Shown: positions 39,369-64,000 of the stretch, in pieces
Layout: the number at the start of each line of letters is the position of its first letter
How positions within the stretch are numbered: the stretch's first letter is position 1
Assembly (NCBI GenBank): GCA_020629035.1
Contig: JAHDEC010000010.1
Coordinates: forward strand, 1-64,000
Direction of reading: 5' to 3'
DNA length: 64,000 nucleotides
Source of the DNA: Saprospiraceae bacterium
Lineage (GTDB): Bacteria; Bacteroidota; Bacteroidia; Chitinophagales; Saprospiraceae
Notes under the pieces: generated by a model
Database searches by the model: none
What the model saw: only the letters and a program-made list of their open reading frames with translations
What the model was told of the DNA's origin: nothing
Made by a program: the position numbers and the translations under genes

Positions 39369-40547
39369 CTAGGCACTGGCATTTTCGAGTTGTATGAATT
39401 TAATTTTCATTAGTCTTTGCTTACTTATTGATTTAGCACATACTCCTCTGCAAATGGAAGATAAAATCTCAATGTTACTTTTTAATTGAAGAGAGTCAAG
39501 TACTTGTTGTTGGTACTCTTTGTTTATCTCAATTTTATATACGCAGTCGGAAATAAGGATTTTTCCTTTTCTTATGTACCCGATTTTTCTGTAACAATTC
39601 CTTCCAACCCTTCCTAAAAGAATGTTCCCTTTGTTTGCATATGCTTCTTGTCTTATTTCAGCTTTTCTACGATCTCCATTTATATTAGTTAGACCATAAT
39701 CTAAGCTGGTTGTATGAACAAATTTAGATTTTAGTGATTTGAGCTCTTTATGAGAAAAAGATCCTCTTCTAATTTCCGCCCCTAAGTCATTTAGAGAAAC
39801 TAGTTTTTTATTTTGATTATTTTGAAAATGCCAATATTTGAAATCGAATGTCTCATGAAGTAAATTACTTTGTATTTTCAAGTTTTTGACTTTTGCTTTT
39901 GGGTCAAACTTACAAAGTGTTACCATGTAGTTTTTTACTGGTTCTATTTTCTTGATTATTAGTATAGTTGTTTTTGCTTCAGTTGTTTTGAACGACCTTT
40001 CAGGTATGTCAATTATTTTAATTAGTTTATAATTTTTCAGAATGGCTTCTCTGAAGCCCTTGTAGGTATGTGAAGCAGAAATGGAATCTGAAACTATTAT
40101 TCCAAGTATACCATTTTTTTTGATCGAGCTTAAACCATATGCAGCAAATAATATTTCTGTATTAAAATTGTTCAGGTTTAGGTAATTAAGAATTTTTATT
40201 TCACTCAGGAGCTTTTTATAATTAGAATCAAATTTTAATTTTATATAAGGAGGATTGCTTATAGCGGCATCTAATTTTGTTATTTGTAGTGATTGAAATA
40301 TATTTTCTTTCCTAAGATCAATTTGATAAAGTTTGGAGTCGTTAATTAAAATGTTCTTTAGCTTATTTTGAAGATTTATGTCAATTCCTATGACATTTGA
40401 TGTCTTATAGACATTTTGAAATTGTTTACTTAAAGCTCCATCTCCAATTCCTAAATCTAGCACATAGGTAGGTTCGATAAGCGGTAGTGCCTGAATTAAT
40501 ATTTTGCTTATACTATCAGATGTATAATGTGCTCCATTGTTTATCAT
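39369..40547 (-). CDS. Gamma-class amino-methyltransferase (M.TaqI/HemK-like; probably N6-adenine DNA MTase) with C-terminal target-recognition-like region
   Basis: Motif I VLDLGIGDGAL lies before motif IV NPPY (about nt 40245-40256). The C-terminal roughly 200 aa are basic. It is the last gene of the AT-rich 4-gene cassette and its start overlaps the upstream gene's stop. Confidence 0.6.
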   Translation of the reverse strand: MINNGAHYTSDSISKILIQALPLIEPTYVLDLGIGDGALSKQFQNVYKTSNVIGIDINLQNKLKNILINDSKLYQIDLRKENIFQSLQITKLDAAISNPPYIKLKFDSNYKKLLSEIKILNYLNLNNFNTEILFAAYGLSSIKKNGILGIIVSDSISASHTYKGFREAILKNYKLIKIIDIPERSFKTTEAKTTILIIKKIEPVKNYMVTLCKFDPKAKVKNLKIQSNLLHETFDFKYWHFQNNQNKKLVSLNDLGAEIRRGSFSHKELKSLKSKFVHTTSLDYGLTNINGDRRKAEIRQEAYANKGNILLGRVGRNCYRKIGYIRKGKILISDCVYKIEINKEYQQQVLDSLQLKSNIEILSSICRGVCAKSISKQRLMKIKFIQLENASA

Positions 40548-41500
40548 TATATAAGATTAGTTAAGTGATAAATGTATGTTTTGCCAGACCCTTGGCTGCC
40601 AAATTTCTTTTCCAAAGGGAAATCATAAACAATATAAGTATTATTCAAAGCCGCATATAGTGCCATTCCTAATAAATGAGGTCTGGGTCCAATTGGACAT
40701 AAGTAAATGTCATATTGAGATTTCCAATTTAATTCTAATTCTTTTAAAGTATTTATTATGTCAAATGGAGAAGTCGCTAAGCAATTTTTTGCATTGTCGA
40801 ATACATCATACCTGAGTAATGTATCCGAGTTCAATTTAAGAGCAATTTGATCCCAACCTGGTTTGTAAGAGGGAAAACCAAAAATTGGGTAAATTTCTTT
40901 AGGGTTGGTAGATTCATTTATGGCAACAAATCTTTTCTTGTCAAAACCAAGTGATACGATTAGTAATTTGTCTTTTTTCGATGCTTTTTTTATAAACCCA
41001 GGCACTGGTGACGAACTACCTTTAAACATTTCAATTAAGTCGAAAGGTTCTTCAGAATCTTTTAAGTTTGGTAGATTTTTTCTTTCATACTTCTTAGGCT
41101 GTGTATAGCTAACAAAAAAAAGTTTGGTTTTAATTTCCTTTACGAACACACTAATTGAATAGAAAATCAAAGCTTGTCTCATAGAAGTGATGTCTAAGAG
41201 AACTGATTTAGTTGTTAAGTTTAGTGAATTTAAAAGTTTGAAGTATTGCGGAATTATAGGTATGGAATTTAAACTTTTATCAATGATCTCTCCGTTTTGT
41301 TTTAATGTATATGAAAAAGACTGGTAATTGTCTTTTGACGATAGGAGTAAGATTAATCCTTTATAACCCTTTAGTTTTGTTAAAAGTGCTGACGATCTAT
41401 GATCTTCTTCTTGCAATGAATCAGTTATCACAATATCAACATTTGAGCTGAATATTGCACGATTATGATCAGATAGTATATAGGATTCTTGATACATCAT
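40547..41500 (-). CDS. Hypothetical protein of the island; possible PD-(D/E)xK-type nuclease
   Basis: No clear family. VLLDITSM...(20 aa)...VFVKEIKTK gives a hhhD...hh(E)xK arrangement. Translationally coupled on both sides (ATGA overlap). Confidence 0.3.
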   Translation of the reverse strand: MMYQESYILSDHNRAIFSSNVDIVITDSLQEEDHRSSALLTKLKGYKGLILLLSSKDNYQSFSYTLKQNGEIIDKSLNSIPIIPQYFKLLNSLNLTTKSVLLDITSMRQALIFYSISVFVKEIKTKLFFVSYTQPKKYERKNLPNLKDSEEPFDLIEMFKGSSSPVPGFIKKASKKDKLLIVSLGFDKKRFVAINESTNPKEIYPIFGFPSYKPGWDQIALKLNSDTLLRYDVFDNAKNCLATSPFDIINTLKELELNWKSQYDIYLCPIGPRPHLLGMALYAALNNTYIVYDFPLEKKFGSQGSGKTYIYHLTNLI

Positions 41501-43422
41501 TGATGGTCTGAGAATAGATTTGGAGTTTCTGAGATTGATCGAAAAAGATACTTAGTGACTATGGATTCAATTTGTTTTTCAGACCCAATAAGTAAGCCTT
41601 CTATATCTTGGGCACTTATTTTAAGTTTTCTTTTTCTTCTATGGGATATACCAAAATAAGGGCAATAAATATGATTGATGTGAAAATCAAAAAATTCTAT
41701 CCCATCTTTGGTTTTGCTTGACTCTCCTTGTTCAAGAATTTTGTTTTTTAAGGCTTCTTGGAAAAGAATAAAGGCTTCTTCCTTATTTTGTTTTAAAGTA
41801 TTGTATTCAGTTGTGAAATGGTTTTGTTCTACTTCTCCTAATGTCGATGATGGAGAGATATGGTGAGATCTAAAAATTTTACCTAATGCTAAGGTGAAAT
41901 ACTTTAATCTGAATCCATGAGGTTCATATGATTCAATTTCATCTATTTTGTTCTTGCTTACTTTATGGGCTGCATCGGACTGTTCAATTTGGGTTAGTTG
42001 CCTAGGTTTTTTAAAGTCTAATCTGTCACTAGAATAGAACAGGGCATTATTGAATGATTCTTCAACTAATTCTAAAAAACTTCTTATTACACCTGATGAC
42101 AAGGCAGAGAAAGTTTGAATTCCAGAATATAGTTTCGCGGCATTTATCTCATGGCCTAAAAGAAACTCAGTGTGGTATAAAGTATTGCCAATTAAATCTT
42201 TATAGCGTTGATTTTGATTTTCAATCATTTCCTTAAGTTCTAAGGCAGGAATTATATTTGATTTTGTTCGCAACAAAAGACATATTGAATTTCTAATTAT
42301 TAATGGATCTAATGAGGAGAAAAAACCCTTTAACGATTCCAAGGTAGTTTTATCATAATTAAGTTTTCGAGATTGAATTTCAAGAACTTGATATAATTGT
42401 TTTTTTAAGTTATTAAACTGATCTATCGACAAAACTTTGAATTCTTCACCTCTTGGATATTTTTTAAGGTACCATTTCAAAGATGTATGGTCTTCGGATT
42501 TTGATAGGATGTTTTGCTCTTCTAGATAAATACTAAGCCGTTTGTCACAAATCTTTACTGCTAAATTTATAAATTCTTGAATGTTGGAGTATTCTGCAGT
42601 GTCAGTTGTCAAAGAGACATAATCGTCTTTTTTGCGAATTTCTTCTTGAGAAGCAACCTTATAGGATTTGATGCCATTTGTAATTACTGCGTAATCAAAT
42701 ACAAGGTTATGATTACTTTGCTTAAGTAGAGTATTTAAAGTTATCTGTTGATACTTAAGAAGCTTTTCAAATTCATCTATATATATATGAAAAGTTAAAT
42801 GAGAAAAGTATTCGATTTTTTTTAATTCTTCTACTAGATCAGTTATTATTATTCCAGGACCTGTACCGTTAGGAGAATCATTTAATGTAGAATTTGAGAA
42901 TGTTTCTAAATCAATTAACTTCTTCTGTAATACATTTTTTAGTTCCGCAAGAGAGTTGATATTGTGAGTTGAAAAACGGTAAGCTAACTTTTTGTTAAAA
43001 GGTTCAATGTTTTCAATTGTCATTAAACCTTCTTTTATTGCCTCTTGAATAAAGTCAATAATTTCAAGAGTTATCACACAATTAAAATATAGATTAAATA
43101 AGCCTGACCAAACTTTCTCAGAAGTCTCTTTCCCTGTAAAGCTTGATATAAATCTTGAATCAACTAGGTAGTAAAATCCGATATGTTTCTCACTGCCAAT
43201 TAAGTTTTTTATAGTTGGCTCAGATTGATAGGAATATTTTTTTTCTTGCCACGAGTTGCACTTGTAAAACATGGTTTTACCAGTACCTCTACTGCCTTCA
43301 AAAATTAATGGCTTTTCGGATATCTTTGCTCTAAATGGTTCGTCGACAAAATATTTCCACACATTGTCTCCCATCTGTTCAGTTCGCAACTTTGAAAACG
43401 GGTTATATGGTTTTAAATTCAT
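41497..43422 (-). CDS. Large P-loop NTPase (Walker A/B; AAA/ORC- or STAND-like) of the island
   Basis: Walker A IFEGSRGTGKTMF (about nt 43271-43312). Walker B HIYIDEFEKL. Long alpha-helical C-terminal region. The likely start is the internal ATG at 43422, directly after the upstream stop; the ORF track extends to 43491. Confidence 0.6.
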   Translation of the reverse strand: MNLKPYNPFSKLRTEQMGDNVWKYFVDEPFRAKISEKPLIFEGSRGTGKTMFYKCNSWQEKKYSYQSEPTIKNLIGSEKHIGFYYLVDSRFISSFTGKETSEKVWSGLFNLYFNCVITLEIIDFIQEAIKEGLMTIENIEPFNKKLAYRFSTHNINSLAELKNVLQKKLIDLETFSNSTLNDSPNGTGPGIIITDLVEELKKIEYFSHLTFHIYIDEFEKLLKYQQITLNTLLKQSNHNLVFDYAVITNGIKSYKVASQEEIRKKDDYVSLTTDTAEYSNIQEFINLAVKICDKRLSIYLEEQNILSKSEDHTSLKWYLKKYPRGEEFKVLSIDQFNNLKKQLYQVLEIQSRKLNYDKTTLESLKGFFSSLDPLIIRNSICLLLRTKSNIIPALELKEMIENQNQRYKDLIGNTLYHTEFLLGHEINAAKLYSGIQTFSALSSGVIRSFLELVEESFNNALFYSSDRLDFKKPRQLTQIEQSDAAHKVSKNKIDEIESYEPHGFRLKYFTLALGKIFRSHHISPSSTLGEVEQNHFTTEYNTLKQNKEEAFILFQEALKNKILEQGESSKTKDGIEFFDFHINHIYCPYFGISHRRKRKLKISAQDIEGLLIGSEKQIESIVTKYLFRSISETPNLFSDHQ

Positions 43423-44348
43423 TGGGTCGTTTTTCTTCTTATTAAATGCTTCCAATCCGGAGACTTTTTGTGAAATATTGGTAACGACCAATTTGGAATT
43501 CTATCGCTAAATATCACAGCAAAGTCAAGTTTTTTAAAACCTCTGAAACTTACTCCTCGTGTTTTTTGTATTTCATTAAAATAACTTACAGCTTTCTCCC
43601 TTTCATTAGAATCTTTTCTCCAAATTGCGGTGTTTTCTTCATGAAATATTCTGTTTTCGTTAGTAAGCTCTTCTACAACAACCACATTTATGTTTTCCAG
43701 AGATCCTGCTTGCTTTAATTTTTTGACACTATCAATGTATCCAATTAATGCAAGATAAGTTATGCTGAAATCATTGCTTTTTGCATATTCTTTTATGAAT
43801 TCTATGTTCTGTGATTTCCAAAAATTCTTAAGTTGCATTCCAGATCCAATGCAATCGTCAACAATTATTAATTGCTCATAGTTTTGAATTATATCTTGAT
43901 TGATATTATGTAAAAAATAAACATTTTCTTTTGGTACTGATAGTTTATGAACTAAATCACCTGTCACCAAATTTCCACTTTCATATGGCTTGTCAGAATC
44001 TAATAAGGGGATAAAACAAGTTTTGTTCTTTAATTCGGTAATAGTCCCATTGTAATAGTTTCGAGGAAGTATGTGATCTTTAAAACTATTTAGAAAACTT
44101 TTAATTTGACTTGACCAGACTAGTTCATATATGCCATATTCTAGAAGTTTGATCAAATCCTTTTTTGAATAGAAAATTGTGTTTAGCAATATTTTAAGGA
44201 GATAGTATTTGCCTTCATCATCATTATCGAAATTGAAATTTATCCACTCTTCAATTTCCTTGAATGAAAGGAAATCACATTTTGACCTAACAAGAGCTTT
44301 AAGCACTGGTAGTTTAGCTCTATAGTATTGTGAATGATTTATTTCCAT
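43419..44348 (-). CDS. Phosphoribosyltransferase (PRTase)-domain protein, first gene of the island cassette
   Basis: Central PRPP-binding-type motif LIIVDDCIGSGMQL (about nt 43830-43871). Four hydrophobic residues, an acidic pair and a small-residue loop, as in type I PRTases. An N-terminal roughly 150 aa region of unknown function. Confidence 0.5.
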   Translation of the reverse strand: MEINHSQYYRAKLPVLKALVRSKCDFLSFKEIEEWINFNFDNDDEGKYYLLKILLNTIFYSKKDLIKLLEYGIYELVWSSQIKSFLNSFKDHILPRNYYNGTITELKNKTCFIPLLDSDKPYESGNLVTGDLVHKLSVPKENVYFLHNINQDIIQNYEQLIIVDDCIGSGMQLKNFWKSQNIEFIKEYAKSNDFSITYLALIGYIDSVKKLKQAGSLENINVVVVEELTNENRIFHEENTAIWRKDSNEREKAVSYFNEIQKTRGVSFRGFKKLDFAVIFSDRIPNWSLPIFHKKSPDWKHLIRRKTTQ

Positions 44349-44570: not shown

Positions 44571-45167
44571 TTAACCTCTATTCTTCTCAAGCAGAATCAT
44601 CATCATTAAGCCTAATAAGATGCGATCATCATCATCCGAATCCATAGGGCCTTCTTTCGTAATTTCAAAATTTCTACCAAAAAAAGAAGGCAGTTTTCGC
44701 AATCTAACAATTTCCTTATCTTTTGTATTTTTTACGATATATGATGGATTAAATAAATAGCCGGTAAGCATGCTTATAATCGGGATTTGCCCCAAAATAG
44801 AGTCTCCAACTTTTGCCCAAGCATTTTCCTCGCTTACTGTGTATTGTATATTCTGATTTTCGTCTAGAATAGTATACTGGGCTTTCCAAATTGACTTCCA
44901 ACCTTTTCTTGCAATTTTCCCAAATTCTTTACCATCCTTATCAAAGAATGCATAAGCCGCAGAAAAATCCAACCACTTATCGGCTTTGATCCGATATAAT
45001 TGTTCGGTTTTTGATTGATCACTGAAAATGAGAATGTCTTCCTTAAGCTTAAATAGTTTTTGTTTTACGTAAGCAATAATCTTTCCTTTAGAGTCGGTTG
45101 CTGTAAAGTCATTCGATATAGAGGAAATTTTAAATTGAAGGGAGATAGGAAAAGTAATGTTCTGCAT
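44571..45167 (-). CDS. LURP-one-related (LOR)/Tubby C-terminal-like family protein (DUF567)
   Basis: About 198 aa. YVKQKLFKLKEDILIFSDQ...YRIK.. pattern typical of bacterial LOR/scramblase-like proteins. Confidence 0.5.
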   Translation of the reverse strand: MQNITFPISLQFKISSISNDFTATDSKGKIIAYVKQKLFKLKEDILIFSDQSKTEQLYRIKADKWLDFSAAYAFFDKDGKEFGKIARKGWKSIWKAQYTILDENQNIQYTVSEENAWAKVGDSILGQIPIISMLTGYLFNPSYIVKNTKDKEIVRLRKLPSFFGRNFEITKEGPMDSDDDDRILLGLMMMILLEKNRG

Positions 45168-52630: not shown

Positions 52631-52657
52631 GCTCTTCAGTTATGAAGGGCTTTTTTT
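52631..52657. terminator. Bidirectional Rho-independent terminator between convergent genes
   Basis: GCTCTTCA-GTTA-TGAAGGGC hairpin flanked by A-run and T-run (AAAAAA...TTTTTTT). Confidence 0.65.
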
Positions 52658-55600
52658 ATTTCTACCCTTGAAAAACCATAACAATAAACCAATCATAAGC
52701 ATCCCAAAGCCATACAAATATGAGCTATATGGACCTACAAAATCTAAGGGAGACATATCACCAGTAGCTATAAATCCAGCGTAATAGTAAGGTGTTTTTT
52801 GAGAATCAGGAATCGTCTCATCATTTATATAGGCCAATTTCGCTTCCCTAAGTGCATGATCTTTTCGGAGGCCATCCTTTAAAAAAGAGTAAAACTTGGT
52901 CATTAAATAAGCACTTGCCTCATCTGGGACACGCCATAAAGAACTTACAATGGACTTTGCGCCAGCATATTGGAAAGCATGGGCCATCGACAAGCTTCCT
53001 TCTCCGTCTTGCAGTTCGCCTGTACCAGTGTTACAAGCACTCAACACTAAAAGCTCATTTTCCATTTCAAGCTGATACACCTCAAATGCAAAGAGCTTTT
53101 GATCATACAGACTATCTTTTTTATCACCAAATAGAAGAAAAGAATTCATTCCATTTTCTTCATTCATTATTGAGTGCATAGCCAAATGGACGATATCCTT
53201 GTCTAAGGAATGAGCAACAAAAGAAGCTTCATTTGCTTCACTTCCTACATAAGCATCACCACCTAAAAGTTCTTCGATTTTAGAAACTTCTAGTTGGGCT
53301 CCTGGTAGCGCATAATTTCCATCTCTAACCACTGAAGCATAAATCTTATTTGATGCTAATAATAAGGAGTCAATGCCATCTTCTTTGTATTCAGGGGCAA
53401 AACAGGCTAGAGATCGAACCTTTACAGATCTTGTTAGGTCTTCTCCTTTGATTAGCGATTGGTTAGCATGATAGCTAATATTATATGAGTTCATTAACGA
53501 GGAATCATCATAAGTTAAGATCTCGAAAGGCAGTTGCAACAATAAATTACTTGGGACTATATTTATATTTTCAATGCCTTCTGTAATTGTATAATTATTA
53601 AAAATCGAACGACTAATTTGGTTTACAAGGTCCACATTGTTTTTCCCTGATTTAAGCTCATTAATGTATTGTTCCACCTGATGGTAAAACGCTAAAGGCT
53701 TTTCTATTTTATTCACCACAACTTGATCCTGGCTAATAAAAAAAACGACCGCCATCTCCTCAGTTAAGTGGCTATCGATAATTAAGTCATGAGTCCCTAA
53801 ATTAATATTCCTTTCGCTAGTTGATTTACCAGTTACTGATGAATAAGCCGGATATTTACTACTAATGCTTGCGTTCCAATTATCTCGCTCTCGTAGGAGA
53901 GCAAATAAATTGGTTTTTGCAGCAGCCAAATCCATCATTGAGTCCTGTTCAGTAATGACATTTTTATAGTATAAGATACTGTCCTCGATCATCACTTTTT
54001 CCTCTAATACTTCATCGGGGATATCGTTAAATTTAATTTTAGACTTAGCTCTCATGGAAGCTAATAGTTTACGAGATCTATTAGTATTAACTATATCCAT
54101 CGCTTGATTTATGAAATTCAGACCACCTGATTTTTCGTGCATAGCTAAGGCAGCCTTTAGGGCAATATTAAATACCTCCTGACTTGCATTACTCATGTCA
54201 TAAAACGAGGAAGAATTAATATTCGACTCTGATTGTAGATCGATATTTTGCTTAAACAATTCAAACTGAGCCAATATGGTTTGTAGGTAATCTTCTTGTT
54301 GCTGGTGAGTATAAAGATCATCCAAACCTTTAATATGCTGGGTTTGTACCCATAATAATTCTTCCAATCTCGAAAAACTTCCATCAATGGCATCGGCTTT
54401 GGGATCAAAGGATAAATTTGCATAGGCTAAAGCTATAGCCTCATTGAAGTCTTCCTTTTTATTTTGCTTAGCAGCTTGATGAGCTTTTACATTGTAAGCA
54501 TCAAGAAACAATCGGTTATCACCATCTTTTATTTGGGCAGTTTCATCTAAGGATAGTTCTATTAACTTGGCAGCTTTGTTTATTTGGCCTTTCTCAAAGT
54601 AACATTTCGAGGCTAATAAATTCGAGAATGCTTGATATGTGTTGGCTTCGTGATTTAGTTTAGCATTTATTGGATCTGCTTTTTGTTTTAGGTAAAATAA
54701 GGCAGAATCGACTTGATTTAGATTAAAATACTCACTGGCTATCCCATGATAGAGTGTGAGTTTCGATTGATCCATGATAGATGAATTAGATTCATAGTAG
54801 TCAGCGATTGACATTTTTAATTTAATGGCCTCCTCGAACCTACCTAAATTACCTTTGGCATTTGAAAGGTTTTCGATAAGTACGTAATAGTTACTACTCT
54901 TCATCGCATCTTTAGTCGCTAAATTTCTCAGGGTTTGCTCATAATACTCTATGGCTTCTTCATTCTTGCCCATTTTGCTAAGCGCATTGCCAATGTTCAT
55001 TAAAGGCTGGGTAGCCTGCCTGGAATCAGCACCCATGGTTCTTGCAAAAATGTCATAAGAGCGTTCAAATAACTCTTTAGCTTTTCGGAAATTGGCCTTA
55101 TTAAAGTAAGTGATCCCTAAATTATTGCAAAGCCCCGCATAAAGCGCACTCTCCTTATTCTTTCCATCAAAAAACTTCAGTGCATTAACAAAATGGAGTT
55201 CGACAGAATCCATTTTGCCCTCTCTCCAAAAAGCCAAACCCAATTTAACACAAACTCTAGCATGACGTTCATGGTCATCTGGCATATGCTCCAAAGCGAT
55301 AGGCAAGGTTCTTCGCATCAATACAATGGCTGAATCTACCCTATTGGTCTCCATGTAAATTTGGCTCATGTTTGAGTTAAGAATAACATTGCTCCCATTT
55401 GGATATCCTCTAATGTCATTAACAATTTCTGTTGCAAGGTGATAGTGTCGCTCAGCCTCATCATATTCGTCAAGCCTTTGTAATACATATACCTGTAAAC
55501 CATGCAATCTTGATGTGACCAGGTTTTGTTTCCCAACGGTGGGATAAGCGATAACTAAGGCAGAATCGAGTAAGGCTTTTGAAGCTTTATACTCATTTTT

Positions 55601-55732
55601 TTTATTGAGTTCTATCGCTTCTTCATACATTTTTTGGAGCATGATGGAATCTTGCTGCGCTTGGCTGTATGATGTAGAGATATATAGAAAGAGCAGTGTA
55701 AAAAAGGCTCTTACCATTGGTAGTTTATTCAT
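52640..55732 (-). CDS. TPR-repeat protein with C-terminal CHAT (caspase-like) protease domain and C-terminal TM helix
   Basis: Signal peptide. About 700 aa of TPR-like repeats. CHAT motifs HLAMHS (catalytic His) and LLVLSACNTG (catalytic Cys). Terminal hydrophobic segment. Confidence 0.7.
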   Translation of the reverse strand: MNKLPMVRAFFTLLFLYISTSYSQAQQDSIMLQKMYEEAIELNKKNEYKASKALLDSALVIAYPTVGKQNLVTSRLHGLQVYVLQRLDEYDEAERHYHLATEIVNDIRGYPNGSNVILNSNMSQIYMETNRVDSAIVLMRRTLPIALEHMPDDHERHARVCVKLGLAFWREGKMDSVELHFVNALKFFDGKNKESALYAGLCNNLGITYFNKANFRKAKELFERSYDIFARTMGADSRQATQPLMNIGNALSKMGKNEEAIEYYEQTLRNLATKDAMKSSNYYVLIENLSNAKGNLGRFEEAIKLKMSIADYYESNSSIMDQSKLTLYHGIASEYFNLNQVDSALFYLKQKADPINAKLNHEANTYQAFSNLLASKCYFEKGQINKAAKLIELSLDETAQIKDGDNRLFLDAYNVKAHQAAKQNKKEDFNEAIALAYANLSFDPKADAIDGSFSRLEELLWVQTQHIKGLDDLYTHQQQEDYLQTILAQFELFKQNIDLQSESNINSSSFYDMSNASQEVFNIALKAALAMHEKSGGLNFINQAMDIVNTNRSRKLLASMRAKSKIKFNDIPDEVLEEKVMIEDSILYYKNVITEQDSMMDLAAAKTNLFALLRERDNWNASISSKYPAYSSVTGKSTSERNINLGTHDLIIDSHLTEEMAVVFFISQDQVVVNKIEKPLAFYHQVEQYINELKSGKNNVDLVNQISRSIFNNYTITEGIENINIVPSNLLLQLPFEILTYDDSSLMNSYNISYHANQSLIKGEDLTRSVKVRSLACFAPEYKEDGIDSLLLASNKIYASVVRDGNYALPGAQLEVSKIEELLGGDAYVGSEANEASFVAHSLDKDIVHLAMHSIMNEENGMNSFLLFGDKKDSLYDQKLFAFEVYQLEMENELLVLSACNTGTGELQDGEGSLSMAHAFQYAGAKSIVSSLWRVPDEASAYLMTKFYSFLKDGLRKDHALREAKLAYINDETIPDSQKTPYYYAGFIATGDMSPLDFVGPYSSYLYGFGMLMIGLLLWFFKGRNKKSPS

Positions 55733-55858
55733 ATTGATAGGAATGATTCTTTAGTTAATGTAAGTCTTAAATTGTTATTCACCAAATAGTTTCTCCGATT
55801 TCAAGAGTGAGAAAAGACAAATGTCGATGTCATAGATGCTTAGCCAAAGGATAGTAAA

Positions 55859-55880
55859 ATCACATTTTCATGTGATTAAG
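55859..55880. promoter_or_regulatory. 22-nt palindromic operator-like motif ATCACATTTTCATGTGATTAAG, 53 bp upstream of the adhesin start
   Basis: Inverted repeat TCACAT-TTTC-ATGTGA. An identical copy occurs at 60943-60964. A TAnnTTTG-like -7 box (TACTTTTG) follows. Confidence 0.5.
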
Positions 55881-55932
55881 ATGGTTTAGCATCAAATTAC
55901 TTTTGAGGTATTATTAAATCAAAAAAAGTATT

Positions 55933-58900
55933 ATGAATTCCTATCTACTTACATTTTTTAAATCAATCTTACTAACGCTACTGTTAGTGGGAATCAATCA
56001 AGCTCAAGCTCAAATTTTTTGGGGTGATTATACTGGAGCCGTTACAGCAGAATGCAGCGATGGACCTCTTGAAGTTAATGTCAATGTTTCTGGAATTGGT
56101 ATTCTGGGAGAAGACAATCTTGGTATTGTGGAAGTATTTGTTGATTTAACAGTTGGCAGTGGCTTTCTTGTTGATCTCGTCCTAGAAGCACCTAATGGGG
56201 ATGAATTTATACTTGCGGCCTCTTCATTAGGTTCATATCCTGGATGGACTGGGTTCTACCACTCAATTGCTTATATCCCTTGTCCTGATTTACCTACACC
56301 TCAAGATTCATGGTCCAGCTTATGGTATACCGATGGACAACCAGAGGAAGATTTTTCCGTGCTAAACGATCAAGGAATCAATGCAGATGGAAATTGGAAA
56401 ATTAAAATATGTAATGATAATTTGCAAGCTAGTTATTTTTCAGAACTTTATTCCTCGAGAATTACCTTCGGTAATATCTGTCCGGAAGTCACCAATGTTT
56501 ATTATGCATCGGCAGGTCCTGAGTGTCCTGATGATCTGAGCCAAGTCTATATTGAAGTAGAAGATGGTATTTGCCAAGCCAGTACAGTATCCGACGATAA
56601 TGGTAATTCGACATCAACGGGATTTGAAGTCATCGATATGTGGGTAGGAACTGGAGATAATAATTTCTATGCTGAAGATGATTATGGTTGCACAGGTCCT
56701 GGTTTTGAATTTAATTTGGACCCTATTGACCTTGAATACCCTGTTTTTTCTAATTTACCAGATCTGACCATTTACGCATGGGTAACTGAAGGTACGTGCT
56801 CAGCTGAAGTTAGCATTGTAGATCCAAATTATTCTGACAATTGCGGGATTGTTTCAGCCATTGGTACTCTTGAAGACGTAAACGGGACAATATCTACATT
56901 TGCATTAGAAGAAGGTATGTCATTTGACTACATTTTGGGAGTAGGCAATAGTTATCTTACTTTCACCATTGAAGATGCTTATGGAAATATTACCACATAT
57001 ACAACCACTATCCAAGTAATAGATCCAATTCCTCCAGTTGCAGCTAACCCATTGGTAAATATATATATTGAATGTGGTGATCCATATGATGGTGATCCTA
57101 CTCCGTGGTTAGATAACTTCCTTTTGTCAGATAATTGTTCATCCGTAGAAGAAATTAGTCTCTCACTGATTGATTCGTATACCACCCAAAATTGCGGCTC
57201 AAGTTTTACAGATACTTGGATTTATGAATTTTATGACGCAAATGGCAATTTCAATTATGATACAAATTTGGAATTAAACATTATTGTTCAAGATAACCAA
57301 GGTCCTACAATTACTGGGGTTCCTACAGAACCAATCATTTTTGATTGTGGTGATGATTTCTTACCCTACTTCCCTATCATTGGTGTAGATGTTTTTGCTG
57401 ATGATTATTGTGAAGGAGATTTAACTTCTTCGATTGAAGAATCTATAACCCTTGTTGCTAATGACTGCAATGATGGAACTGGGATTATTGAAATAGAAAC
57501 GCATACTTTCTTGGTAAGCGATGGATGTGGCGCAACATCTGAGATATCGTATGAAGTACATATTACTGATTTGTTGCAACCAACTTGGTTAGCTCCATTT
57601 GAAGCACCTATGCTAATTACGGGTGAATGTGGAGTAGATGATTTGCAAGAAATTATTGACGCTTATATCCCAATCGCCGGAACTTGTAATGGAGAAATTG
57701 AAGGCATAGAAACAGCAAATGAATTTTCAGAAGAATGTCTTGGATCAGCTTCAGGAACTACCTTCATTGATTACGAGTCAACTAGTGACTGTGGGGTGAG
57801 TGCTTTTACTAGCTTGGTAGTTGAACTTTTAGATACCCAAGCTCCAGTCATTTCCGGCCAATTACCAGATGTAATCATTCAATGCGGGGATGAATTTCCT
57901 GCAGCTCCTATCCTATCTAGCATGGATGCATGTAATGGTGATGTAACTGATTTGATTGAATTAACGATTACATCATCGACTGATGATTGTGATGCGAATA
58001 TTGTAGAAACCTACACTTATCTCTATACTGCTTCTGATTATTGTGGCAATTCGGCTAGCTATGCTTGGAGTGTTGCTATTGAAAATGATTTTTCCATCGA
58101 ATTAGGAGATGATGTGATCTTGTGTGATGAACCTGAATATCTTATTACGGCAGCAGAAGGCAATTCATATCTGTGGTCAACTGGTGAAACGACACAAAGC
58201 ATTGTGGTAAATACAACAGCGATTTATAGTGTTGTTGTCTACTCGAATAATGGATGTTGCGCAGAAGATGATATAGCCATTAGCTTCGAATCAGGAACAC
58301 CAGTAACAGCGGAAGGTGGAGAATTAGATTGTGAAGGTGGTGCGATAAGTCTATTTGCAGCATCGGGACCTACTTCTACCTATGCATGGACTGGACCTGG
58401 AGGCTTTACTAGTGATTTACAAAATCCAATGGTAAGCCAAGCAGGAACATATACGGTTACAGCAACTAATGAGTTGGGTTGTAGTTCTATGGCAACAGCT
58501 GAAGTAACAACAGACACAAATGTGCCTAGTCTCAGCACCACTGGTGGTGTTTTAGACTGCAATAATTCAACCGTTACTTTATCAGCTTCTTCCGATACAG
58601 AAGATGTTTCTTTTGCATGGTCAGGACCTGATGGGTTTACTAGTGATCAAGAAAGTATTGAAGTCGATGTTGCAGGTGATTATATGGTTACGATTATGGC
58701 TCCTAATGGCTGTATTGCTACCGGTTTAGCAGTTGCGAGTGAAAACCTCGAACTACCAGATTTATCAGCAATAGGTGGCAGTTTATCATGCAACACAAAT
58801 GAAACCCTTATTAGTGCAAGTTCTGCAGATCTTGTGACGTATGCTTGGAGTGGGCCTAATGGCTTTACAAGTGATCTAGCAGAACCTACCGTAAGTGAAG

Positions 58901-60855
58901 CTGGTGATTATACCGTAATAGCAACTGGTGAAAATGGTTGTAGTACTGAGCTTGTGGTAAATGTGTTCTTTGATGGGGCAGAACCAGATCTAAGTGCCTC
59001 AGGTGCAGAATTAAATTGCCAAAACAATGTGGTTACAATAGAAGCCAGTTCAGCTGATGAAAATGTTAGCTTTATGTGGAGTGGTCCAGATGGATTTGAA
59101 TCAAATATTCCCAATCCACAGGTTACTATGGTTGGTAGCTATACGGTTACTGCTACAGGAGAAAATGGTTGTACGACCAGTCTTGATGTAGAAGTTAGCA
59201 CAGATGATAGTGTTCCAAGTTTTGACTTAAGTGCAAATAATATTAATTGCCTGGAACCAACATCAATCATCATTGTCAATATTGACACTGAAGAAGTTGA
59301 GTTTACTTGGAGTGGACCAAATGGTTTTACTTCCGATGAAAAAGACATTCAAGTAAGTGAAGCTGGTACTTATAGCCTAGAGGTAAATAGCGCTAATGGA
59401 TGCAGTTTTAGTGATTTCATCATTATTGAAGAAGATTTTACCATTCCGTCAGTTATCCTTTTTGATGGACAAATTACTTGTGCTAATCCTAGTATTATCC
59501 TAGAAGCTATTACAGATGAAGGAGTGAGTTATCTTTGGTCAGGACCAAATGGCTTTAGTTCTGATGAAGCATCTCCGACAACAAGTGAATCTGGACTGTA
59601 TACCTTAAGTGTTACAGCTGCAAATGGTTGTTCAAATGAAGCATCCTTAACAGTGGAAGATAATACCCAAGAGCCAGAAGTAATTGTCACAGGTGGCACT
59701 TTAAATTGTGAAAATTTAACAACAGAAATTTATGGCGAAACGAATGTGGAAAATGCCATGTTTAGCTGGATCGGGCCAAATGGATTTAGCTCTATAGATC
59801 CATCCCCAATTGTGACAGAGGCTGGCTTGTACACCTTAGAAGTGACCGCACCCAATGGATGCACAAATGATGCAATGACTGAAGTAACGTCTGAAATGGA
59901 ACTACCAATTTTCGAAGCAAATGGAGTGACCTTAAATTGTACCAATCCAGTAAATAATATTTCGGTAAACTCAGATGAGCAAATAAGTATTCGTTGGACT
60001 GGTCCTAATGGTTTTACATCCATCGATGCCAATCCATTAGTACAAACACCAGGTATTTATACTGTGGAGGTGACTGGTGAAAATGGATGTATTACAACCG
60101 AAGATGTTATGGTGGTTGGTGATTTTGACGAACCAGTATTTAGCTTGGAAGCTACCATTATTGATTGCTTTGATGGCCTGGCTGACGTGACTACAATGAT
60201 CGAAGACCAAGAAGGCCTATGGTATGAATGGACTGGACCAAATGATTTCATAGCCCCAGACAAGGATATTCAAGTTAGTGAGTCTGGAGTCTACACGTTG
60301 ACAGCCACTGCGGCTAATGGATGTACTTATACTGAAACAATTTTTGTTTCAGATCCACCGATGGTAGAAGCTACTTTCGATAATACTCCAACAACTCTCG
60401 GTAGTTTTAGTGGAAGTTCAACAATTACAATAACTGCAGGTGATGGACCATTTGATATTGAATGGGAAGATGGCCAAATGGGTGATTTTGCAGAAGGTTT
60501 GGATGATGGACGTATTGAGGTCTATGTAACAGATGCTTATGGTTGCACTACTACTTTTGAGACTTTAATTGAACTGGTATCATCCAATTCGGATGAAGAT
60601 ATAGTCAATGATTGGAACGTTTATCCTAATCCTGCAACAGACAATCTTAGGGTTTCGTTAGAAACTGCTGAATTCTTTGAGGGTTCTATATTCATTTATA
60701 ATACTCAAGGGAAGCGTGTTTTTTCACAAGCCGTAGATAATACAAATCATTTAGATATTAACCTGGATGTCTCTCAATTAGCACCAGCCAATTACATCTT
60801 ACAAATTGTGGGGTCGGATGTAAATATTAGCCAGCAAATTATGATTATTAAATAG
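55933..60855 (+). CDS. Giant T9SS-secreted adhesin-like protein: proprotein-convertase P-like domain, DNC-motif Ig-like domains, nine tandem repeats of about 77 aa, T9SS C-terminal domain
   Basis: Signal peptide. VDLTVGSGFLVDLVLEAPNGDEFIL P-domain-like segment. Repeated W(S/T)GPNGF(T/S)SD....SEAG.YT..AT..NGC units. C-terminal WNVYPNPATDNLRV...YILQIVG T9SS CTD. Confidence 0.7.
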   Translation: MNSYLLTFFKSILLTLLLVGINQAQAQIFWGDYTGAVTAECSDGPLEVNVNVSGIGILGEDNLGIVEVFVDLTVGSGFLVDLVLEAPNGDEFILAASSLGSYPGWTGFYHSIAYIPCPDLPTPQDSWSSLWYTDGQPEEDFSVLNDQGINADGNWKIKICNDNLQASYFSELYSSRITFGNICPEVTNVYYASAGPECPDDLSQVYIEVEDGICQASTVSDDNGNSTSTGFEVIDMWVGTGDNNFYAEDDYGCTGPGFEFNLDPIDLEYPVFSNLPDLTIYAWVTEGTCSAEVSIVDPNYSDNCGIVSAIGTLEDVNGTISTFALEEGMSFDYILGVGNSYLTFTIEDAYGNITTYTTTIQVIDPIPPVAANPLVNIYIECGDPYDGDPTPWLDNFLLSDNCSSVEEISLSLIDSYTTQNCGSSFTDTWIYEFYDANGNFNYDTNLELNIIVQDNQGPTITGVPTEPIIFDCGDDFLPYFPIIGVDVFADDYCEGDLTSSIEESITLVANDCNDGTGIIEIETHTFLVSDGCGATSEISYEVHITDLLQPTWLAPFEAPMLITGECGVDDLQEIIDAYIPIAGTCNGEIEGIETANEFSEECLGSASGTTFIDYESTSDCGVSAFTSLVVELLDTQAPVISGQLPDVIIQCGDEFPAAPILSSMDACNGDVTDLIELTITSSTDDCDANIVETYTYLYTASDYCGNSASYAWSVAIENDFSIELGDDVILCDEPEYLITAAEGNSYLWSTGETTQSIVVNTTAIYSVVVYSNNGCCAEDDIAISFESGTPVTAEGGELDCEGGAISLFAASGPTSTYAWTGPGGFTSDLQNPMVSQAGTYTVTATNELGCSSMATAEVTTDTNVPSLSTTGGVLDCNNSTVTLSASSDTEDVSFAWSGPDGFTSDQESIEVDVAGDYMVTIMAPNGCIATGLAVASENLELPDLSAIGGSLSCNTNETLISASSADLVTYAWSGPNGFTSDLAEPTVSEAGDYTVIATGENGCSTELVVNVFFDGAEPDLSASGAELNCQNNVVTIEASSADENVSFMWSGPDGFESNIPNPQVTMVGSYTVTATGENGCTTSLDVEVSTDDSVPSFDLSANNINCLEPTSIIIVNIDTEEVEFTWSGPNGFTSDEKDIQVSEAGTYSLEVNSANGCSFSDFIIIEEDFTIPSVILFDGQITCANPSIILEAITDEGVSYLWSGPNGFSSDEASPTTSESGLYTLSVTAANGCSNEASLTVEDNTQEPEVIVTGGTLNCENLTTEIYGETNVENAMFSWIGPNGFSSIDPSPIVTEAGLYTLEVTAPNGCTNDAMTEVTSEMELPIFEANGVTLNCTNPVNNISVNSDEQISIRWTGPNGFTSIDANPLVQTPGIYTVEVTGENGCITTEDVMVVGDFDEPVFSLEATIIDCFDGLADVTTMIEDQEGLWYEWTGPNDFIAPDKDIQVSESGVYTLTATAANGCTYTETIFVSDPPMVEATFDNTPTTLGSFSGSSTITITAGDGPFDIEWEDGQMGDFAEGLDDGRIEVYVTDAYGCTTTFETLIELVSSNSDEDIVNDWNVYPNPATDNLRVSLETAEFFEGSIFIYNTQGKRVFSQAVDNTNHLDINLDVSQLAPANYILQIVGSDVNISQQIMIIK
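58381..60350. repeat. Coding tandem repeat array, nine units of about 228-231 bp
   Basis: Units start at about 58387, 58615, 58846, 59077, 59308, 59533, 59764, 59992 and 60226. Each encodes a WxGPNGFxSD...NGC module. Confidence 0.75.
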
Positions 60856-60882
60856 TGTTATTCATATACAACAGTTTGTTAG

Positions 60883-60916
60883 AAAGAGGTGCGTTTTTCG
60901 CGCCTCTTTTTTTTTG
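60883..60916 (+). terminator. Rho-independent terminator after the adhesin gene
   Basis: AAAGAGGTGCG-TTTTT-CGCGCCTCTTT hairpin followed by a T9 run. Confidence 0.75.
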
Positions 60917-60942
60917 TGAATCAATGCTGCGCTTGCTTAAAT

Positions 60943-60964
60943 ATCACATTTTCATGTGATTAAG
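60943..60964. promoter_or_regulatory. Second copy of the 22-nt palindrome ATCACATTTTCATGTGATTAAG, 52 bp upstream of the 61016 gene
   Basis: Exact identity to the 55859-55880 copy at almost identical spacing from the start codon. Confidence 0.5.
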
Positions 60965-61015
60965 GATCCTCGACCTTGATTTAACTTTATACTAATTCTT
61001 TAAATAGAAGTAAGT

Positions 61016-62758
61016 ATGAAAAATTCCTATCTTTTTCCAATATGTATCTATTGGCTATTGGCGCTTTGCCCATCGGCTAATATCCAAGCTCAAAATCTCG
61101 ATAATTTTGACAAGGAAAATCCGGTTAAATTATCTGGTAATATTTCCTTAGGAAGTGCATTTTACCATGCAAATGGTATTGAAAATAAACGGAGCCCTTT
61201 CAGTTATTATTTAAGTGCAAACCCTACCATAACTCTTTATGGCTTTAATATACCGATGTCGTTTACTTACCGAGACCAGCAAGGGTCCTTAAGCAACCCA
61301 TTCCAGCGGCTAAGCATAAGTCCATCATGGAAATGGATACGTGTGCATGCGGGTGATGTTAGAATGGGTTTAAATCCATATATCTACTCAGGTGTAGTGC
61401 TTAAAGGTGGCGGTATAGAACTTTCTCCAAAATTATTCAGGTTTTCTGCGGCTTATGGCACATTAGAAAACCCATTGGCTCAAATTGATACTATAGTTGC
61501 AGGATTGGAGCAATTAGAGACGTACAAGAGACAAGCAATGACCATATTAGCTGGAGTGGGTAGTTCAAGCAATTATGTCGAACTCAATTTTTTGAGAGCA
61601 AAAGACGATCCATTAGCAACAACACCAGGAGGATTTCATGAGTTTGTAAAAGCCGAAGAAAATATAGCACTAGGAGCTGCCTTTAAGTTTACCTTATTCA
61701 AACGTTTTTTTGTGAGTGCCAATGTTGCCTCAAGTGCAATAACGGCAGACCAAAATTCTCCCTTTGAAGTCATAGATGCAAACTCGAGTGAGGCACTTCA
61801 AAGATTGGATAATCTGTTTACAGTTAATCTTTCTACCAGAATTTCTTTTGCCGGTGATGCTGATGTAGGTCTCAAGTTTAGACATTTTGGTATCAGTGCC
61901 AATTATCGCCGCATTGACCCTCAATATAAAAGTCTAGGTACTTTGTATTTTCAAGAGGATCTAGAAAATTATACGATTAGACTAAATTTTTCACTTTGGA
62001 AAAATAAAATAAAATTTAATGGCTCCGGTGGGATTCAAAGAAACAATCTAAACGATCTTAGGAGCTTTACAAATGAAAGAAAAATTGCAAATGGCACTTT
62101 AAGTTTAATCCCTACAAAGTGGTTTGTACTTTCTGCTCGATATTCAAATTTCCAAACCGATCGCACACCCGGATTTTTTAATGTTTCTGATACACTACGT
62201 TACGCTCAAACAACCGACATCAAAGGAGGAACCATGCGATTTCGTTTTGGAAAAAAGATTCCATCATCCATTACTGTAAGTGCCAATGTACAAAGCTTAG
62301 TCGATGTGTTAAGCAACATAGAAGGTAATCGAACCATTGATAATTACATTGGGAACCTTAGTTACAATTTGAATTTAAAAGAAAAGAGAATCAATTTCAC
62401 CAGCGGTTTACAATACATAGAAAATCAATTTCCAGATCGAAATAATCAACGTTATGGAGCCAATATTAAAGTAGGAACAAACTTTTTAGACAAAAAACTA
62501 AAACTAAATGTTGGAACAGCTTACCATTACAATTTTGAAGATTTTATAGCTGATGGCAATTCTTTTACGGGCCAGATAAAACTCAACTATAAGAGATCTA
62601 AATTGATAACTACCGGTTTAAACATCAATTTTCTTCATAGAATAAGAGCTATTGAATCATATCAGGAATGGCGAGCAACTGCTAAAGTCAGCTATCGATT
62701 TAATACCAATTTCAAAAAAGAGACCACTACCCCAAACCAAAATAACACCTCCAATTAA
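61016..62758 (+). CDS. Hypothetical outer-membrane or secreted protein downstream of the adhesin
   Basis: Signal peptide MKNSYLFPICIYWLLALCPSANIQAQ. Beta-rich alternating pattern. No specific family recognised. Confidence 0.4.
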   Translation: MKNSYLFPICIYWLLALCPSANIQAQNLDNFDKENPVKLSGNISLGSAFYHANGIENKRSPFSYYLSANPTITLYGFNIPMSFTYRDQQGSLSNPFQRLSISPSWKWIRVHAGDVRMGLNPYIYSGVVLKGGGIELSPKLFRFSAAYGTLENPLAQIDTIVAGLEQLETYKRQAMTILAGVGSSSNYVELNFLRAKDDPLATTPGGFHEFVKAEENIALGAAFKFTLFKRFFVSANVASSAITADQNSPFEVIDANSSEALQRLDNLFTVNLSTRISFAGDADVGLKFRHFGISANYRRIDPQYKSLGTLYFQEDLENYTIRLNFSLWKNKIKFNGSGGIQRNNLNDLRSFTNERKIANGTLSLIPTKWFVLSARYSNFQTDRTPGFFNVSDTLRYAQTTDIKGGTMRFRFGKKIPSSITVSANVQSLVDVLSNIEGNRTIDNYIGNLSYNLNLKEKRINFTSGLQYIENQFPDRNNQRYGANIKVGTNFLDKKLKLNVGTAYHYNFEDFIADGNSFTGQIKLNYKRSKLITTGLNINFLHRIRAIESYQEWRATAKVSYRFNTNFKKETTTPNQNNTSN

Positions 62759-62781
62759 ATCAATTTCAATATCCATAAAAC

Positions 62782-64000
62782 ATGAAAAAATTAATGCGTT
62801 TTCCTATCTATCTTATCACTTTTATATTCCTTAGTGTCACAGTTTCCGCGCAAGATTATCCTTTAGAAATTAGCGTATTACTTACGCCTCCATTTCCAAC
62901 TAATTTAGATGCCTATGCTGAATATTTGGAAACTGGTCTGTTTTCAATCAACAATACTTCTAATGAAGATGTGGAGGCTTATTTTACTGCTTCTCTTACG
63001 AAGAGCAATGGGTTTAGTATTGAATTGGATGGTCAAAGTAAACAATCCATCCTTTTCCCACCGGGAATTACATTTCTAGGCTCAGCTGAAATTGAAGAAA
63101 CCTTTGCTGGGCTGTCAGATCAAGATGCTAATATTCAGGGATTGACAAACGAACAAATCAATAACCTTGTTCTTTATCGACAATTGCCAGAAGGTGATTA
63201 TGAAATTTGTGTCCATGCCTTCGATGAATTTGGACAGGCCTTATCTGAACCTGGCGCGATTAGTTGTTTTTCATTTAATGCACTCTATCCAGAACGTCCG
63301 ATTATCATCGATCCTTTTGAGGGAATGCCAGTTGATACTATTGGGATGGTAAATGTGGTATGGTTACATAACCTAAGCGATTTTAATGTAAAAAATAGAT
63401 TAGAATACCATTTAAAACTGATCGATTTGACTGAACTTGGTGTACCGGCATCCATGGCACAAGATGTCATGTTTAATGAAAGTACTGATGCCATCACAAA
63501 AATTATTGAGGGAGAAACATTCTATATCTTAGATATTTTTGAAGATCCGGGTATATTGGTTGAAGGCCATAGCTATGCTATTAAAGTACAAGCTGTAGAT
63601 CCTGATGAAGAAGTAGCCTTCCAATTTGGGGGTCATAGCGAAATGGTCTTGTTTGACTATGGAGAGACAGGACCTATTGACGAAGAAGACGAAGAAGAAG
63701 AGGATGAGGAGGATGAGGATGATGAGGAGGATGAGGATAATGCTTATGCTGATCAAGAACCAGGAGAATGTGTAGGCAATTGCATTGCTACCCTACCCGA
63801 AGAGGAAACATCTGAAGAATTAGAAGGCAATGACTTAGTTTTTTTAGGGAAGTTTACTATGGAATTAACGGAAGAACCTGATGGAGATCCTGATATCGGC
63901 TATTCTGGCATTGGGGAGATTGAAATCGACATGCTAAATAATACAAAAGTCTTAGTCGAGTATAGCGGTTTAAAAGCAACCAAAATTGGAGCTGTTTTGG
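62782..64000 (+). CDS. Hypothetical secreted protein with acidic E/D-rich linker (3' end outside the window)
   Basis: ATG at 62782. Signal peptide MKKLMRFPIYLITFIFLSVTVSAQ. The frame is open to the window end (checked by hand translation). Contains an EEDEEEEDEEDEDDEEDED tract. Confidence 0.5.
   Translation, partial: MKKLMRFPIYLITFIFLSVTVSAQDYPLEISVLLTPPFPTNLDAYAEYLETGLFSINNTSNEDVEAYFTASLTKSNGFSIELDGQSKQSILFPPGITFLGSAEIEETFAGLSDQDANIQGLTNEQINNLVLYRQLPEGDYEICVHAFDEFGQALSEPGAISCFSFNALYPERPIIIDPFEGMPVDTIGMVNVVWLHNLSDFNVKNRLEYHLKLIDLTELGVPASMAQDVMFNESTDAITKIIEGETFYILDIFEDPGILVEGHSYAIKVQAVDPDEEVAFQFGGHSEMVLFDYGETGPIDEEDEEEEDEEDEDDEEDEDNAYADQEPGECVGNCIATLPEEETSEELEGNDLVFLGKFTMELTEEPDGDPDIGYSGIGEIEIDMLNNTKVLVEYSGLKATKIGAVL

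Follow-up and report, generated by a model that had tools for sequence, protein, structure and literature searches.

A palindromic site in a Saprospiraceae surface-protein cluster as a probable operator of its own NarL/FixJ-family response regulator

The binding sites of NarL are pairs of heptamers arranged 7-2-7 with the consensus TACYYMT, and the lux-box and tra-box recognized by LuxR and TraR are palindromes of 18-20 bp centred near -42.5. The Escherichia coli NarL dimer activates yeaR from -43.5, as seen by cryo-electron microscopy (PMC10853779), and ogt from -44.5 (PMC7419079), while binding by LiaR depends on an A-tract beside its inverted repeat (PMC4447274). Here we describe a 22-nucleotide (nt) palindrome, ATCACATTTTCATGTGATTAAG, in a 64,000-nt stretch of DNA from a Saprospiraceae bacterium (GCA_020629035.1, contig JAHDEC010000010.1, positions 1 to 64,000). 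This stretch is called the window below, and palindrome counts within it refer to its full length. The palindrome precedes two consecutive genes for secreted proteins, a 1640-amino-acid (aa) protein with PKD/Ig repeats (the adhesin) and a 580-aa protein. Quite probably it is the operator through which a NarL/FixJ-family response regulator (RR), encoded in the same cluster and autoregulated, activates the cluster promoters. In kind the system is most likely a classical two-component one, with an autoregulated NarL-family regulator, a palindromic operator and neighbouring targets. This particular one is undescribed: a literature search, which included NarL-type regulators in Bacteroidota and Flavobacterium, returned no description of the palindrome site or of the RR, and a paper on Porphyromonas gingivalis CdhR matched the half-site words solely through primer sequences.

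LiaR- and VraR-type regulators combine a REC domain with a GerE helix-turn-helix (HTH), as does the RR found here, and in both cases the locus of the regulator itself carries the site. Furthermore, the A-tract and inverted repeat of LiaR are matched here by AAA and a 7-4-7 repeat. The half-sites differ, however, being of the TCAGHCT type for LiaR/VraR and ATCACAT here, as do the host phylum and the promoter type, which in our case includes a Bacteroidota -7 box. Whereas LiaR/VraR systems have a LiaS/LiaF-type sensor and target cell-envelope stress genes, the partner kinase here has Reg_prop/Y_Y_Y or TPR sensor domains and the predicted targets are surface proteins. At yeaR and ogt, a dimer of the same family sits on an inverted heptamer pair whose centre lies about 43 bp upstream of the start of transcription; the predicted centre of the palindrome here is -42.5. 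The heptamers of NarL are spaced 7-2-7 but those of our site 7-4-7, and the polymerase and sigma factor here are of the Bacteroidota type. LuxR and TraR likewise use a dimer with a GerE/LuxR-type HTH, a palindrome over the -35 region and positive autoregulation of the locus. In contrast to the phosphorylation-controlled RR described here, these proteins sense acyl-homoserine lactones through an N-terminal ligand domain, and the sequences of their boxes are unrelated to the palindrome except for ATGTG/CACAT words in opposite order.

The palindrome and its promoters

The window contains exactly two copies of the 22-mer, one ahead of each of the two secreted-protein genes, as the original prediction had it (coordinates are collected in Table 1). 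No other match exists in the window at ≤3 mismatches, which agrees with the earlier statement that there are no further copies there; a third copy does lie past the window end on the same DNA. In 100 dinucleotide-preserving shuffles of the window the 22-mer was matched 0 times. When the 14 half-site bases alone were scored, the window had two sites at ≤2 mismatches (0.45 expected), which are the palindrome copies themselves, and sites with 3-4 half-site mismatches were at or below chance. The inverted repeat first read as TCACAT-N4-ATGTGA is present in both copies and widens to an 18-nt core, the 7-4-7 inverted repeat ATCACAT-TTTC-ATGTGAT. Its half-site centres are 11 bp apart, or about one helical turn, an inverted-repeat layout of the NarL/FixJ type. 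A distance of 52-53 bp to the start codon had been given for both copies; we measured 52 nt for the adhesin gene (ATG 55933) and 51 nt for the 580-aa gene (ATG 61016), so that the figure stands for the first and is slightly too long for the second. Near-identity between the two copies extends over 25 nt with one mismatch (AAAATCAC... versus AATATCAC...) and decays after that, the remainder of the upstream regions having loose similarity only.

A palindrome of this size need not be an operator: it might be a small hairpin, a repeat like REP (repetitive extragenic palindromic) or MITE (miniature inverted-repeat transposable element) sequences, a relic of promoter duplication, or a pair of direct repeats that excise the adhesin gene. 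A hairpin of 7-8 bp can form, the two copies in the window lie as direct repeats on either side of the adhesin gene, and many of the non-Bacteroidota matches in the genome scan reported below are tips of longer terminator-like hairpins. However, the hairpin has low stability (-6.9 to -7.1 kcal/mol, z about -1.8 to -1.9), lacks a T-run and was not called in an intrinsic-terminator scan, whereas a real terminator sits 32 nt upstream of copy 2. Since this strong terminator follows the adhesin stop codon, copy 2 belongs to a separate promoter. The palindrome also lies upstream of the -7 box and therefore is not in the transcript that it would control. An Rfam search (E up to 1) returned no family at the palindrome and only a sub-threshold chance match within the adhesin gene. 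The palindrome is present twice in 64 kb and three times in 72.8 kb, every time at a promoter, homology stops after 25 nt, and genomes carry a single copy or few; the REP-like element dispersed over non-promoter sites, which the original prediction had named as the finding that would speak against it, is not what we see. In addition, orthologous copies differ by 1-3 bases, which indicates that identity is not required. Excision via the two direct repeats was rejected, as orthologous copies vary in sequence and the gene table of contig L041, described next, lists no recombinase. Taken together, a non-operator origin of the palindrome is highly improbable.

A candidate for the regulator was found past the window end. 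A homologue search with the 580-aa protein led to contig L041, which shares 11,834 identical nt with the window and runs 8,758 nt further. The genes along it are, in order, TPR-CHAT (minus strand), adhesin, 580-aa, 2001-aa, 689-aa, a 207-aa RR and a histidine kinase (HK), and the third copy of the palindrome, ACCACATTTTCATGTGAT, stands before the RR gene. A tblastn search with the RR inside the 64-kb window found no homologue. The RR retains the canonical receiver residues D11, D57 and K107, and its closest solved homologues are VraR/LiaR and NarL, with VraR nearest (E = 4e-25); it scores below every NCBIfam equivalog cut-off. A REC+GerE regulator with a HisKA_3 kinase is likewise encoded near the sites in three further clusters, L043, L045 and L127.

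These three clusters, from Saprospiraceae metagenome-assembled genomes (MAGs) whose 580-aa proteins are 62%, 54% or 46% identical to the one here, hold the palindrome at the same promoters. Counting L041, ten sites in four genomes are kept at orthologous promoters while the surrounding DNA diverges. Changes in the half-sites tend to be symmetric, as in ACCACAT...ATGTGGT in L127, and the consensus is A[T/C]CACAT-N4-ATGTG[A/G]T with the A-tract on the promoter-distal side; an AAA run precedes the palindrome in the aligned cluster sites. L043 has no TPR-CHAT gene between its 468-aa gene and the adhesin, and the palindrome is still there, so copy 1 probably serves the adhesin promoter and not the CHAT gene. 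Consistent with this, no -7 box was seen at 21-22 nt on the TPR-CHAT side of copy 1, by eye and with no computational scan made, and the TPR-CHAT gene is probably not driven by the palindrome.

Bacteroidota-type -7 elements had been noticed behind both palindromes, and both TACTTTTG and TAACTTTA proved real, each beginning exactly 21 nt from the 18-nt core. The same gap from core to TAnnTTT[G/A] box, exactly 21 nt, was found in 10 of 10 cluster sites in the four genomes. Over these ten sites the mean information content is 1.79 bits per position for the palindrome and 1.53 for the box, against 0.4-0.6 for flanks and gap. The sigma-A box of Flavobacterium, TAnnTTTG, lies at -12 to -5 (PMC9723704). 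With the box in the same place, the 21-nt gap would put the 18-mer at -34 to -51 relative to the predicted transcription starts, with its centre at about -42.5. The site thus stands at a fixed distance from a core promoter element, and its centre near -42 rests on the Flavobacterium box position. No -33-like TTTG at the usual distance was seen by eye in the aligned cluster sites (no computational scan made), which would fit activator-dependent promoters. A scan for sigma-70-type promoters found 30 versus 26 expected and is uninformative for this phylum.

Association with GerE-type regulators and proposed activation

Clusters that hold the 580/2000/690-aa module but no GerE-type RR provide natural controls. 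The palindrome is absent in 3 of 3 such clusters, namely L126, with a LytTR RR, L128, with an AraC-type regulator adjacent, and L129, with no adjacent regulator. In L126 (Saprospiraceae MAG GCA_020627785.1), where the LytTR RR gene is divergent and accompanied by a kinase, the adhesin gene is preceded instead by a direct repeat, CCGTTTATAGCCAT / CCGCTAATAGCCAT, with a 22-nt period at 4540-4575. A direct repeat of such a period is the pattern expected for a LytTR regulator. Regulator and cis-element appear to have been exchanged together in L126.

The association was then read from regulator to motif, using 80 metagenome loci fetched solely by protein similarity to the RR (36-54% identity). Thirteen of the 80 homologues have the palindrome at ≤2 mismatches within 250 nt upstream of the RR gene, where about 0.06 would be expected for that DNA. 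Six other sites were found among these loci, five of them downstream of the RR gene at 0.7-1.5 kb from its start. The spacers vary among the sites (CATG, CTTA, ATAT, TTTT), while the half-sites are kept or changed symmetrically, as in ATCCCAT-N4-ATGGGAT (L059, L066), and a -7-like box stands at 21-22 nt in 8 of 18 metagenome sites. The site occurs in 14 of 23 loci whose RR has the recognition helix [ST][IL][NDE]T[VI]R[TS]H and in 0 of 57 with another helix (Fisher p = 5e-10).

In the opposite direction, the exact 18-mer was scanned in 185,579 GTDB species representative genomes, a set that does not include the source genome. This gave 40 matches, each single-copy in its genome, 19 of them in Bacteroidota. 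Ten of the 40 have a GerE/LuxR HTH gene no more than about 250 bp away, and five of those ten genes encode REC-GerE RRs with HisKA_3 kinases (two Saprospiraceae MAGs, Hymenobacter polaris, Sphingobacterium wenxiniae and a Bacteroidales MAG). In another Saprospiraceae MAG the 18-mer stands beside an 81-aa stand-alone HTH. Four matches outside Bacteroidota (L019, L027, L035 and L038, from Anaerolineales, Anaerolineae, KSB1 and deltaproteobacterial MAGs) place the identical 18-mer 40-220 nt 3' of the stop codon of a LuxR-family regulator, three of these regulators being about 900 aa long and one a 216-aa reading frame (L019). The class of the ~900-aa proteins, MalT-like, was assigned from their size, the presence of a GxGKT motif and the match to their C-terminal HTH and not by a domain search. 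The HTHs of the four share 35-44% identity with that of the Saprospiraceae RR and have in common the helix S[IL][ND]TVR[ST]H. Because the 18-mer and the shared helix are also found together at these LuxR regulators outside Bacteroidota, the comparison suggests that the pair of operator and HTH is much older than the Bacteroidota two-component version.

A [T/G]AnnTTT[G/A] box stands 21-22 nt behind 10 of the 19 Bacteroidota matches, and at none of the other gaps from 15 to 29, but behind only one of the 21 non-Bacteroidota matches. As a rough estimate, tens of matches at hairpin tips are expected by chance, given the number of terminator hairpins. Site and -7-like box at 21-22 nt occur together in other Bacteroidota at L013 2061-2078, L030 1889-1906 and L031 4514-4531, where the genes behind them encode a TPR-adenylate/guanylate cyclase, a small stand-alone LuxR HTH (beside an EAD11-domain gene) and a lipocalin-like protein. 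The presence of the site before such unrelated genes indicates that the regulon differs between lineages and is not tied to type IX secretion system (T9SS) cargo.

Together, the control clusters, the RR homologues, the helix class and the genome matches agree that the site follows the presence and the specificity of the regulator. This bears on the alternative that a different dimeric transcription factor, encoded elsewhere, binds the palindrome and that the RR gene is merely another of its targets. The half-sites superficially resemble the TGTGA/TCACA words of CRP-type sites, and this analysis covered about 84 kb of this genome. On the other hand, in 10 of 40 genome matches, from several phyla, the site is accompanied by a GerE-type HTH gene; it is absent from the orthologous clusters without the RR; and it tracks the recognition-helix signature. 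Another factor is therefore very unlikely. A CRP/FNR site in particular was considered and rejected. The palindrome has the same pentamer words at the same N6 distance but reads TCACA-N6-TGTGA, while the CRP order is TGTGA-N6-TCACA, and because the half-sites are swapped a CRP-type dimer could not read it. CRP/FNR regulators are of the cyclic-nucleotide-binding (cNMP) type, whereas the regulator family associated here is GerE/LuxR, and the likeness is a resemblance only.

The shared operator for a dimeric regulator, proposed originally for the adhesin and its downstream partner, is supported by the conservation of site and spacing, by the cluster-encoded RR with a site of its own and by the independent co-occurrence of site and regulator. 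In the mechanism we propose, the phosphorylated RR would dimerize and each HTH would read one 7-bp half-site. The dimer would take the place of the -33 element, with its centre at about -42.5, and recruit or stabilize RNA polymerase. Three promoters would be switched on together in this way, those of the T9SS adhesin, of the 580/2001/689-aa operon and of the RR-HK genes, the last amounting to positive autoregulation. The rigid distance from site to box over distant lineages argues that polymerase is contacted stereospecifically, something not required of a simple roadblock.

That argument also bears on the opposite proposal, in which the RR, or its unphosphorylated form, sits on -34 to -51 as a repressor and blocks polymerase until a change of signal de-represses the cluster. 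NarL-family regulators repress some promoters, the site covers the position where a -33 element would be, and the L127 site, 32 nt from the start codon of the divergent RR gene, has a position more typical of repression. Yet the spacing is rigid, at 21 nt in the ten cluster sites and at 21-22 nt in the boxed Bacteroidota sites, the aligned sites have no -33-like TTTG visible by eye, and NarL activates from the same position (PMC10853779). Repression as the mode of action is thus unlikely.

Activation of the cluster promoters by the RR is the reading we prefer, and several observations weigh against it. A site that covers -34 to -51 could act negatively. The L127 site lacks the 21-nt geometry on the RR side, and autoregulation in that cluster would work differently. 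The loci in the association tests are phylogenetically related, so that the p-values overstate independence, although the direction of the association between helix and site is clear in the sequences despite this kinship. Nine of the 23 RR homologues with the matching helix have no site within the DNA available. Finally, the non-Bacteroidota sites 3' of MalT-like LuxR genes sometimes lie inside a longer hairpin, as in L027, where the hairpin is GC-rich, and could be partly terminator-related.

Cluster genes and a second short word

Table 1. Sites, genes and short words in the window and in related loci
Feature	Position	Strand	Remarks
Palindrome copy 1	55859..55880; core 55859-55876; AAA before at 55856-58	+	Exact match; predicted RR-dimer operator, adhesin promoter
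Palindrome copy 2	60943..60964; core 60943-60960	+	Exact match; predicted RR-dimer operator, 580-aa/2001-aa/689-aa operon promoter
Palindrome copy 3	L041 18895-18912		97 nt before RR start codon; 7,061 nt past window end
-7 box TACTTTTG, Bacteroidota sigma-A	55898..55905	+	Read from sequence; predicted transcription start ~55910
-7 box TAACTTTA	60982..60989	+	Predicted transcription start ~60994
Adhesin gene, 1640 aa	55933..60855	+	Pfam PKD, Ig_2, Ig_7, Por_Secre_tail; TIGR04183; signal-peptide-like N-terminus
Intrinsic terminator, hairpin and T-run	60881..60911	+	Past adhesin stop codon; 13-pair stem; -19.2 kcal/mol, z = -5.9
580-aa secreted protein gene	61016..62758	+	First gene of 580/2000/690-aa module; no Pfam match; signal-peptide-like N-terminus
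2001-aa secreted protein gene, 5' part	62782..64000, off window end	+	From L041 gene table; signal-peptide-like N-terminus
TPR-CHAT gene	52640..55732	-	Divergent from copy 1; Pfam CHAT and TPR; part of wider conserved neighbourhood
RR gene, 207 aa	L041 18992-19615		REC + GerE/LuxR HTH; 7.2 kb past window end
HK gene	L041 from 19668		Next after RR; Reg_prop, Y_Y_Y, HisKA_3
Palindrome sites, L043	4793; 9928		Before adhesin and 576-aa genes; also before RR gene
Palindrome sites, L045	10		Before 571-aa gene; also before RR gene
Palindrome sites, L127	4559; 9931		Before adhesin (intergenic region common with divergent RR gene) and 573-aa gene
TTCCTATC(T)	55938-55946; 61024-61032; 62801-62809	+	In window
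TTCCTATC(T)	55736-55743; 45143-45151	-	In window
TTCCTATC(T)	L041 RR 5' untranslated region		1-nt insertion
TTCCTATC(T)	L043 10009, 11774, 20087; L045 104, 1824		Orthologous starts in other genomes

The C-terminus of the adhesin is a type A T9SS sorting domain (TIGR04183). SprB carries a type B sorting domain, and the adhesin is therefore not classed as SprB-like, as the genome-wide check suggested with the original prediction might have led one to expect. About eight tandem repeats of 228-234 nt (PKD/Ig-like units of ~77 aa, 60-75% identical at the DNA level) lie in the adhesin gene at 58378-60330.

For the 580-aa protein, the public gene call starts 14 codons later, at a TTG at 61058 (566 aa); a protein begun there would lack the signal-peptide-like N-terminus, which makes 61016, an ATG, the more plausible start. 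Some homologues of the protein carry a precomputed PF13557 assignment, and one was named a TonB-dependent receptor by its source. The 2001-aa gene starts 23 nt after the 580-aa gene.

The genes for the 580-aa protein, a protein of ~1350-2450 aa and one of ~660-690 aa (faint fn3) form a three-gene module that is conserved from Saprospiraceae to Pedobacter and Fulvivirga. Here the module covers window 61016-64000 and L041 8850-18761, other examples were seen in L126-L129, and a TPR-CHAT gene is usually near. The three module proteins have no Pfam, NCBIfam or PADLOC assignment. Among the cluster proteins as a whole, NCBIfam named none and PADLOC returned nothing beyond generic TPR.

A second short word, TTCCTATC(T), lies at or beside the translation starts of cluster genes. 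It is found at ATG+5 in the adhesin gene, ATG+8 in the 580-aa gene and ATG+19 in the 2001-aa gene, and 3 nt before the ATG of the TPR-CHAT gene. It falls in different reading frames (N-S-Y-L, F-P-I-Y, Q-F-L-W and I-L-S), which points to conservation at the nucleotide level. The 9-mer form occurs four times in the window against 0.89 expected. Each of the four follows a start codon by no more than 20 nt, and one belongs to an unrelated 198-aa gene. The word is absent from the L126 cluster, with its LytTR regulator, and a complementary small-RNA seed, AGATAGGAA, for the word TTCCTATCT was sought in the clusters and none was conserved. The word could be an RNA-level control element.

Elsewhere in the window, two neighbouring genes on the minus strand lie in a low-GC stretch at 40001-44348 (0.304 versus ~0.36). 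One encodes an ORC-CDC6-like protein (PF24389, 664 aa) and the other a PRTase-CE protein (PF24390, 309 aa), and together they look like an acquired conflict- or defence-type gene pair.

Possible reuse of the operator-regulator pair and its use in Saprospiraceae

A broader reading that joins these observations is possible but doubtful. In it, ATCACAT-N4-ATGTGAT and the GerE/LuxR subfamily with the TVR[T/S]H helix would be an old pair of operator and regulator that has been reused with different sensors, works from a fixed activator promoter in Bacteroidota and serves as a module master switch. The sensor would be a REC domain in Bacteroidota, a MalT-like STAND ATPase in Chloroflexota, Desulfobacterota and KSB1, and no partner domain at all in the 81-aa stand-alone HTH. 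The Bacteroidota promoter design would consist of the site, 21-22 bp, the -7 box and no -33 element. The pair would be the master switch of a widespread surface-protein module made up of the T9SS adhesin, the 580/2000/690-aa proteins and TPR-CHAT, and the module may have a second control layer in the TTCCTATC(T) word at its translation starts.

To our knowledge, Bacteroidota other than Bacteroides and Flavobacterium have very few defined transcription-factor sites and no defined design of an activator-dependent promoter, and Saprospiraceae have none. The locus reveals no new regulatory principle; what it would add is a defined activator-type promoter geometry for Bacteroidota. It yields a proposed wiring diagram with one kinase/regulator pair, three promoters of rigid geometry, predicted transcription starts and a helix signature that predicts the occurrence of the site. 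The motif can be used for regulon prediction in MAGs, and it opens a way into a conserved, unannotated cluster that encodes very large secreted proteins in the largely uncultured Saprospiraceae.

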